20,826 bases of DNA, taken from contig CAZVZC010000037.1 of assembly GCA_964631415.1 (NCBI GenBank), forward strand, positions 1 through 20,826, given 5' to 3'. The first letter of the stretch is position 1. Each line of letters starts with the position of its first letter. Positions 900-1,071 of the stretch are shown here, piece after piece. Source of the stretch: an uncultured archaeon. Lineage in GTDB: Archaea > Asgardarchaeota > Thorarchaeia > Thorarchaeales > Thorarchaeaceae. Under the pieces are notes generated by a model that worked only from the letters and a program-made list of their open reading frames with translations, was not told where the DNA came from and made no database searches. The position numbers and the translations under genes were made by a program.

Positions 900-1071
900 G
901 GGGACGTGGCCTAGGCCGGTAAGGCGACGGGCGAGGTCCACGCATCGCCGTGGATTTACGCACTCCAGATCCGGTGAACATACGGGGTCATCAGGAAAAG
1001 CAACTCGTCGATCCAGGGTTCAAAGCATCCTCACAACCCGTGAGCCTGTGAAAGTCCCTGCGTCCCCACCA
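900..1071 (+). tRNA. tRNA-Trp(CCA) with three introns (32/33: 933-963; 37/38: 969-1002; 59/60: 1025-1054) and encoded CCA
   Basis: Acceptor stem GGGGACG (900-906)/CGTCCCC (1061-1067) plus ACCA; D-stem GCCT/AGGC; anticodon stem ACGGG/CTCGT; variable loop CGATC; T-stem CAGGG/CCCTG. Removing the three inserts gives a 77-nt cloverleaf with anticodon loop CTCCAGA and T-loop TTCAAAT. The T-loop intron has a perfect BHB; the two anticodon-arm boundaries are less certain. Confidence 0.88.

Follow-up and report, generated by a model that had tools for sequence, protein, structure and literature searches.

The DNA analysed here is contig CAZVZC010000037.1 (C37 in our numbering) of an uncultured Thorarchaeota (Asgard) archaeon, assembly GCA_964631415.1, and the window is the whole contig, 20,826 nucleotides. 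The assembly of this genome (G000 below) comprises 2.16 Mb in 81 contigs at 85% completeness and 52.7% G+C. On the forward strand, positions 900-1071 hold what we read from the sequence as a functional tRNA-Trp(CCA) gene interrupted by three bulge-helix-bulge (BHB) introns, an interpretation to which we give a probability of roughly 0.88. Exon 1 (900-932) carries the 5' strand of the acceptor stem, the D arm, the 5' strand of the anticodon stem and C32. Exon 2 (964-968) is a micro-exon of only 5 nt, UCCAG, consisting of U33, the anticodon C34-C35-A36 and G37. Exon 3 (1003-1024) runs from A38 through the 3' strand of the anticodon stem, the variable loop and the 5' strand of the T stem to A59 in the T loop, and exon 4 (1055-1071) contributes U60, the 3' strands of the T and acceptor stems, A73 and an encoded CCA at 1069-1071. 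The inserts between the exons measure 31 nt (intron 1, 933-963, Sprinzl position 32/33), 34 nt (intron 2, 969-1002, at the canonical position 37/38) and 30 nt (intron 3, 1025-1054, at 59/60 in the T loop), and each contains a hairpin. An earlier note on this DNA had proposed the same layout, and its exon boundaries and letters, its insert sizes and hairpins and its 77-nt cloverleaf were all recovered here. All four exons are colinear on one strand within 172 nt; a split or permuted tRNA gene was ruled out, as the exons lie neither at separate loci nor in permuted order.

Joined in silico, the exons form a 77-mer that ARAGORN names tRNA-Trp(CCA), a call that does not change when 40-nt flanks are added, with acceptor, D, anticodon and T stems of 7, 4, 5 and 5 bp. 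By direct reading, the product has the conserved tRNA bases U8, A14, G18-G19, A21, U33, G37, G53-U54-U55-C56, A58 and C61, as well as the discriminator A73 and the encoded CCA; CCA stands at or near the 3' end in all 25 ARAGORN tRNA calls of G000. Identity elements of tRNA-Trp of the archaeal/eukaryal type are the anticodon CCA, the discriminator A73 and the G1-C72 pair. All three can be read from the joined sequence, which predicts charging with tryptophan, and the acceptor stem and A73 are the same as in a halobacterial tRNA-Trp whose intron carries a box C/D guide (L072). Two of the junctions can slide by one base with no effect on the product: intron 1 may be placed at 31/32 or 32/33 (C932 = C963) and intron 2 at 37/38 or 38/39 (A969 = A1003). 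The register of the intron hairpins favours 32/33 and 37/38 over the one-base-shifted alternatives.

Splicing motifs and splicing enzymes

We scored each intron against the BHB layout, in which a 4-bp central helix (H) has a 3-nt bulge 3' of it on each strand, cut after the second base, with an outer helix (h) and an inner helix (h'). Intron 3 has a strict hBHBh' motif: its H, UUCA/UGAA, is paired at four of four positions, its bulges are AAG and AGU, its h' has 2 + 5 bp, and its h is the 5-bp T stem. Introns 1 and 2 appear to have relaxed BHB motifs. In intron 2, H (CUCC/AAAG) has two of four pairs, the bulges are AGA and CAA, h' is the hairpin 970-977/988-996, and h reaches 7 bp once intron 1 is gone. 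In intron 1, H (ACGG/ACGC) likewise has two of four pairs, the two inner ones, C928-G960 and G929-C959, being Watson-Crick with A.C and G.A outside; the bulges are GCG and ACU, and h' is the 9-bp hairpin 934-942/949-957. Rescoring thus returned the same strict motif at 59/60, and the same two Watson-Crick central pairs with correct spacing at 32/33 and 37/38, that had been reported from the letters earlier. The closing pair of h' falls at precisely 5' cut +2 and 3' cut -7 in each of the three introns, a register found specifically in BHB introns. Attempts by hand to fit a mirrored BHB layout, or to place intron 1 at 31/32, give no helices.

Weak central helices also occur outside this gene. 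Of the eleven canonical introns called by ARAGORN in G000, three have an H paired at 4/4 positions, four at 3/4 and two at 2/4; the remaining two score 0/4, and we suspect that they are mis-registered. The 37/38 introns of tRNA-Trp genes in other genera mostly have 2-3 of four H pairs in our own reading of the alignment. Constrained folding places the intron-2 motif about 5 kcal/mol above the minimum, with or without intron 1 present. Protein binding could plausibly pay this kind of folding cost, and we take the modelled energies to decide nothing either way.

The genome encodes two proteins with the catalytic domain of the tRNA-intron endonuclease. The first, a 188-aa EndA alpha encoded at L016:1474-2040 on the minus strand, has its best match in the Aeropyrum pernix catalytic subunit (3P1Z_B, E = 8e-49), with further matches to Sulfolobus tokodaii 2CV8 and Pyrobaculum aerophilum 2ZYZ_B, and it retains the catalytic His, the residue mutated to Ala in the 3AJV chain. 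The second, a beta-like EndA paralogue of 240 aa encoded at L017:1090-1812 on the plus strand, with weak matches to NCBIfam beta-subunit models, has Thr at the position aligned to what we take to be the catalytic His of Methanocaldococcus jannaschii EndA. An RtcB ligase is also present (592 bits). In an ungapped alignment, K43 of EndA alpha stands opposite K44 of A. pernix EndA (APE), a residue of the Crenarchaea-specific loop that is required for broad substrate specificity (PMC3241643). Two-subunit EndA architectures have been linked to relaxed and to non-canonical introns (PMC4090602, PMC5829648), relaxed motifs are among the substrates of (alpha-beta)2 enzymes (PMC4090602, PMC3241643), and a preprint reports the two-EndA architecture in 44 of 60 Asgard genomes (10.64898/2026.10.13.758758). 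Typing of EndA, which the earlier note had put forward as a check, has therefore yielded a crenarchaeal-type alpha with K43 and a His-less beta-like paralogue, plus RtcB. The pair is consistent with a broad-specificity heteromeric endonuclease whose substrate range is predicted. Transcription would yield a single precursor, about 172 nt long without its leader and trailer; the heteromeric EndA, made of the catalytic alpha and the His-less beta-like subunit, would cut every intron at its two 3-nt bulges, and RtcB would ligate the exons.

Orthologues, intron history and constraint

To trace the gene in relatives, we searched 40 genomes with positions 890-1080 and read the loci obtained; additional orthologues, many from Thorarchaeota metagenome-assembled genomes (MAGs), came from a pattern scan of named genome records with the first 15 bases of the tRNA. 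The exons are the same as in the orthologue of G002 and near-identical to the tRNA-Trp of about two dozen Thorarchaeota MAGs. G002 (Thorarchaeota OWC3, PRDI01000014.1), a sister species in the same genus, has all three introns at 96% identity. Two further members of the genus, G001 and G003 (the latter a Thorarchaeota MAG of the MFD series), have the 37/38 and 59/60 introns, and in them CUCCAA/CUCCAG is contiguous with exon 1, with exactly the 31-nt insert missing. The anticodon of the present gene does therefore sit on a 5-nt micro-exon, as had been proposed, UCCAG at 964-968 matching the uninterrupted loop of these relatives.

In other genera, the 37/38 intron occurs by itself in G022, G007, G006, G016 and several named MAGs. 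It is accompanied by a T-loop intron at 59/60 in L071 (SOKL01000121.1) and at positions near 59/60 in G013 and G018; T-loop introns lie at 58/59 in L006 and at 56/57 in L010. Four loci (L008, L028, L044 and L075) have a D-loop intron instead of the T-loop one. Our census covers 22 distinct full-length genes, aligned, plus those of G001 and G006: the anticodon-loop intron is found in all, the T-loop intron in 7, the D-loop intron in 4, and the 32/33 intron in G000 and G002 only. Intron 2 was present in every Thorarchaeota tRNA-Trp gene collected, and intron 3 is missing from the single-intron orthologues. A core pattern of intron 1, allowed up to 3 mismatches, matched only G000 and G002 among 61 family genomes. 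Orthologues that lack intron 1, intron 3 or both do so exactly at the predicted junctions.

Parsimony on these sequences makes the 37/38 intron the ancestral one of the family and traces the 32/33 intron to one recent acquisition by the ancestor that G000 and G002 share; the T-loop intron either predates the genus or arose repeatedly. A search for donor copies of the three introns in G000 by blastn-short matched only the introns themselves. Intron transposition was ruled out, since G000 has no copy of any of them and 60 family genomes have none of intron 1. Derivation of the introns from decayed tRNA copies was also rejected: local alignments to the mature sequence, on both strands, were no better than those of shuffled sequences (p = 0.34-0.99).

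We aligned positions 820-1700 to the G002 locus and counted differences by compartment. There are none in the exons (0/77) and 5/95 in the introns, compared with 36/159 in the two intergenic flanks and 71/550 in the neighbouring open reading frame (ORF); by Fisher's test, exons differ from flanks at p = 2.8e-7 and introns from flanks at p = 1.7e-4. Two of the intron differences, C939 to U and G952 to A in G002, turn the C939:G952 pair of the intron-1 hairpin into U:A and are thus compensatory. The third, at 983, lies in the loop of the intron-2 hairpin, and the last two, 1025 and 1054, are the bases at which intron 3 starts and ends, each of them in a bulge. The intron-2 hairpin (970-977/988-996) covaries between genera. 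This substitution pattern fits an expressed gene with structure-constrained introns, not a dead gene. Resting on two species and one compensatory event, it is strong evidence for overall constraint only, and suggestive for the intron-1 hairpin.

The orthologues also bear on how the anticodon is read. Another junction register, or a composite intron made of two inserts, would give a different anticodon, and ARAGORN does return such calls: tRNA-Gly(CCC) i(37,34) for a construct from which introns 1 and 3 have been taken out, and tRNA-Ala(AGC) i(37,65) for one that lacks intron 3 alone. The glycine call moves both intron-2 cuts by 2 nt, which destroys the h' register. In our own reading of the alignment the same shift yields CCA, CCU or CCC across species, whereas the 37/38 register yields CCA in all, and G000 has a separate tRNA-Gly(CCC) at C5:64442-64547. 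The alanine call treats 65 nt as one intron and is contradicted by G001 and G003, which lack intron 1 and have UCCAG/UCCAA contiguous with exon 1. With an acceptor stem and A73 equal to those of the halobacterial tRNA-Trp, a register other than that of tRNA-Trp(CCA) is hardly credible.

Intron 2 itself contains the element GGGGTCA (984-990). Its RNA form, GGG(G)UCA, is kept in the 37/38 intron of all 23 distinct Thorarchaeota-type sequences aligned, whether that intron is short (30-34 nt) or long (57-63 nt), and it was found in loci L002-L011, L019, L040, L043, L065, L071, L075, L076, L091, L109, L111 and L133. The structural context of the element varies between sequences. It is complementary to G30-C35, a pairing that RNAalifold chooses, and it resembles the GGGUUCA of the T arm. 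A pseudoknot between GGGG (984-987) and CUCC (32-35) was considered and appears unlikely on steric grounds, since no linker would separate it from the hairpin strand. Direct reading of 969-1002 revealed neither a box C (RUGAUGA) nor a box D (CUGA), and at 34 nt the intron is too short for a guide ribonucleoprotein.

Flanking elements, detection and copy number

Upstream of the gene, a candidate archaeal promoter resembling a B recognition element (BRE) and TATA box, GAAAGGATTAAATC, lies at 828-841 on the forward strand, about 60 nt from the mature 5' end; its function is predicted from its sequence and placement. Within the genus the element reads GAAAGGATTAAATC or AAGAATTAAATC, and in other genera GAAAG[CG]TTCATATC or GAAAACTTCTTAAC. 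It stands 35-60 nt upstream of tRNA-Trp in other Thorarchaeota loci, where the remaining flank has diverged. Nearer the gene, ATGGAACT (886-893) and AGTTCCAT (1071-1078), both given on the forward strand, can form an 8-bp leader-trailer helix whose 3' strand starts at A76 of the encoded CCA. Relatives carry leader-trailer helices in the same place with other letters (TGGAAC/GTTCCA, GCAGT/ACTGC, TGCATTG/CAATGCA and AGAGAT/ATCTCT), which suggests a conserved structure of the precursor ends. Its use as a fourth BHB motif was ruled out, as it has a 6-nt/3-nt internal loop instead of two 3-nt bulges across 4 bp.

Further downstream on the same strand is a 5S rRNA gene (2197-2316, 63.8 bits). A 5S rRNA gene follows tRNA-Trp on the same strand in 9 of 9 loci scanned, at distances of 145 nt to 1.2 kb. 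Between the two genes lies an ORF of 304 aa (1151-2065) that has no Pfam match and is also found there in the genus.

The unspliced gene is called by ARAGORN neither with nor without its intron option, and it has no match to the Rfam tRNA model at the gathering threshold, nor at E <= 10 when 800-1200 was searched. Scores of orthologues with that model follow the number of introns: 51-55 bits with one intron (L011, L005 and L007), 33 bits in one of the two-intron genes (L004, of G001), no match for the other two-intron genes (L003, L008 and L010), and none with three introns (L002 and this window). This shows directly that covariance-model annotation worsens as introns accumulate. The expectation in the earlier note that standard annotation would miss the gene is borne out for ARAGORN and Infernal/Rfam, and we limit the claim to these finders. 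Genome-wide, G000 has just 24 tRNA matches above the Rfam cut-off at its 85% completeness, and most ARAGORN calls have an intron, so that many of its tRNA genes must escape detection on account of multiple or non-canonical introns. The tRNA-Gly(CCC) gene mentioned above has a non-canonical insert after the anticodon arm (in the variable region/T arm), scores 34.4 bits with Rfam and is missed by ARAGORN. ARAGORN also makes two tRNA-SeC(TCA) calls in G000, at C8:26846-26952 and C16:14846-14936.

A second tRNA-Trp in G000, whose absence was a further point for checking, was found by none of four types of search: ARAGORN with introns, the Rfam model to E = 1, BLAST with the gene or its exons, and an acceptor-stem scan for a G-initiated 7-bp stem closed by N73-CCA and containing a YUCCAR loop and a T-loop signature. 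The scan gave 6 matches in G000, of which only this locus and the tRNA-Gly(CCC) are tRNA-like. A looser regular expression for Trp anticodon arms gave 567 matches and was non-specific. Relatives, including those with more complete genomes, have one tRNA-Trp copy each. This locus is probably the sole tRNA-Trp gene of G000.

Several points weigh against a functional three-intron gene. Introns 1 and 2 have only two of four standard pairs in H, and the outer helix of intron 1 is almost nil (1 bp). In constrained folding at 37 C, the BHB conformer of intron 1 costs about 8 kcal/mol more than the minimum-energy fold predicted for the precursor, and the hairpin of this intron is backed by one compensatory event only. 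The order of splicing is purely deduced, and intron 2 can adopt a relaxed motif while intron 1 is still in place. Finally, with G000 85% complete, a second tRNA-Trp could lie on unassembled DNA, unlikely as that is.

Taken furthest, these points would make the gene a pseudogene, killed by the 31-nt insertion at 32/33 in the lineage of G000 and G002 and replaced in function by a tRNA-Trp in unassembled DNA, for which the weak intron-1 motif and the completeness of both genomes (85% for G000 and 83% for G002) could be cited. We regard this as very improbable: exons free of differences beside flanks with 36 in 159, inserts conserved at all but 5 of 95 positions with one compensatory pair, and a retained promoter element and leader-trailer helix all speak against it, as do the absence of a second copy from G000 and G002 in our searches and the single copy in more complete relatives. 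A functional tRNA-Trp(CCA) gene remains our preferred reading.

Order of splicing and relation to known systems

The two motifs in the anticodon arm draw on the same bases: the H of intron 1 takes up 927-930 from the 5' strand of the anticodon stem, which in turn serves intron 2 as its h. The outer helix of intron 2 is accordingly broken with intron 1 present (xx|||x:) and becomes |:||||| after its removal, while the intron-1 motif is unaffected by removal of intron 2. The earlier note called the two motifs mutually exclusive and took ordered splicing to be implied. The full motifs do compete for 927-930, but a relaxed HBh' motif of intron 2 may still form before removal of intron 1, because intron 1 ends in C963, which can take the place of C32: C963-G1000 and U964-A999 then recreate two of the four H pairs in the primary transcript, with 958-960 free to pair with 1006-1008. 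Ordered splicing can thus reasonably be expected, but folding does not demand it.

What argues for an order is the micro-exon. UCCAG would have no stable pairing, and a free pentamer held by at most 2 bp would be lost. It would thus have to stay attached on one side, and introns 1 and 2 would be removed sequentially, each by its own round of cutting and ligation. Removal of intron 1 first is favoured because it completes the intron-2 motif with the anticodon stem as h; the reverse order brings no such gain. Intron 3 would leave independently of the other two. On these grounds we lean, by a modest degree, towards removal of intron 1 before intron 2. PMC3728597 cites nested archaeal introns, whose motif depends on the prior removal of another intron, and in Cyanidioschyzon merolae reverse transcription PCR (RT-PCR) showed that the anticodon-arm intron leaves last (PMC3728597, PMC9602550).

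A functional three-intron gene could also be spliced in no fixed order, with intron 2 first, or either first, via the relaxed HBh' motif. The 3' end of intron 1, ACGCAC, could substitute for the end of exon 1, ACGGGC, which makes C963-G1000, U964-A999 and 958-960/1006-1008 available. A fold that combines the anticodon stem, the intron-1 hairpin and the relaxed intron-2 motif lies just 5.4 kcal/mol above the minimum, and cleavage of relaxed motifs by (alpha-beta)2 enzymes is documented (PMC4090602, PMC3241643). Set against this, intron 2 acquires its full 7-bp outer helix only once intron 1 is out, and the one system examined by RT-PCR loses its anticodon-arm intron last (PMC3728597). We consider splicing in no fixed order possible but doubtful. 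A bolder proposal is that the 32/33 intron is a very young gain, tolerated because its ACGCAC end mimics the exon 1 end ACGGGC so that the 37/38 motif is still presented; together with the GGGGUCA element, the introns would then chaperone splicing order or mask or mark the anticodon, in place of the euryarchaeal box C/D guide role. It strikes us as improbable. Intron-less alleles at 32/33 survive within the genus, in G001 and G003.

The earlier note had framed the gene by comparison with Thermoproteales. Multi-intron tRNA genes with relaxed BHB motifs, up to three introns per gene, are indeed known there (PMC4033280), but the host is an Asgard archaeon, and interrupted tRNA genes have already been published for this group. 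In Asgard archaea, 92-95% of tRNA genes are interrupted and more than half have several introns (PMC11291895). The preprint by Goswami et al. 2026 (10.64898/2026.10.13.758758) describes up to five introns per gene, 30% of genes missed by tRNAscan-SE in three focal families, and many recent intron gains, often on terminal branches, with no general donor route. The present gene is like the Asgard cases (PMC11291895; 10.64898/2026.10.13.758758) in belonging to the same phylum, in having several short BHB introns with many at non-canonical positions, in being under-called by annotators, in showing a recent gain with no donor copy, and in the presence of two EndA paralogues in the genome. The published studies focus on Atabeyarchaeia, Freyarchaeia and Jordiarchaeia. 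The text of the preprint makes no mention of Thorarchaeia, and neither study, as far as the available text shows, describes this gene, its pair of introns at 32/33 and 37/38 or the 5-nt anticodon exon.

Other systems share parts of this architecture. With Thermoproteales (Sugahara et al. 2007, 2008, as represented in PMC4033280, PMC4090602 and PMC3728597) the gene has in common up to three BHB introns per gene, relaxed HBh'/hBH motifs, a likely dependence on an (alpha-beta)2 EndA whose specificity loop matters, and motifs that may be completed only once another intron is out. In those accounts, however, many tRNA genes carry similar intron sequences, a mark of transposition, whereas no intron copies were found here, and the phylum is a different one. 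Euryarchaeal pre-tRNA-Trp (Haloferax, Pyrococcus; PMC4090602) is the same tRNA with an intron at the same canonical position, but that intron bears a box C/D guide, whereas the 34-nt intron described here has no boxes and contains GGGGUCA. In MAGs of Halobacteriales and Marine Group IV (L072 and L131), we observed tRNA-Trp genes with the same acceptor stem and an intron of about 104 nt with recognisable box C/D and C'/D' motifs, which is the classical guide-bearing intron of Euryarchaeota. C. merolae also has three introns in one tRNA, and there the D-arm and T-arm introns leave before the anticodon-arm one (PMC3728597, PMC9602550). It is, however, a eukaryote with introns in three different arms, and it has neither two introns in one anticodon loop nor a micro-exon.

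Unusual as its layout is, the gene belongs to a kind already known from Asgard archaea and reveals no new mechanism; the gene fits the published Asgard picture in every respect examined, including the missing donor copy. For annotation, it means that the tRNA for one whole amino acid is invisible to ARAGORN and Infernal/Rfam, and scoring of the tRNA complement would report a false absence of tRNA-Trp. For enzymology, two relaxed motifs set five bases apart at the anticodon would be a demanding substrate on which to gauge how far Asgard (alpha-beta)2 EndA tolerates a mismatched H. For intron gain, species within one genus differ by a single 31-nt intron for which no donor copy was found and whose sequence already appears to be under purifying selection, a clean comparison that fits the repeated recent gains reported for Asgard archaea.

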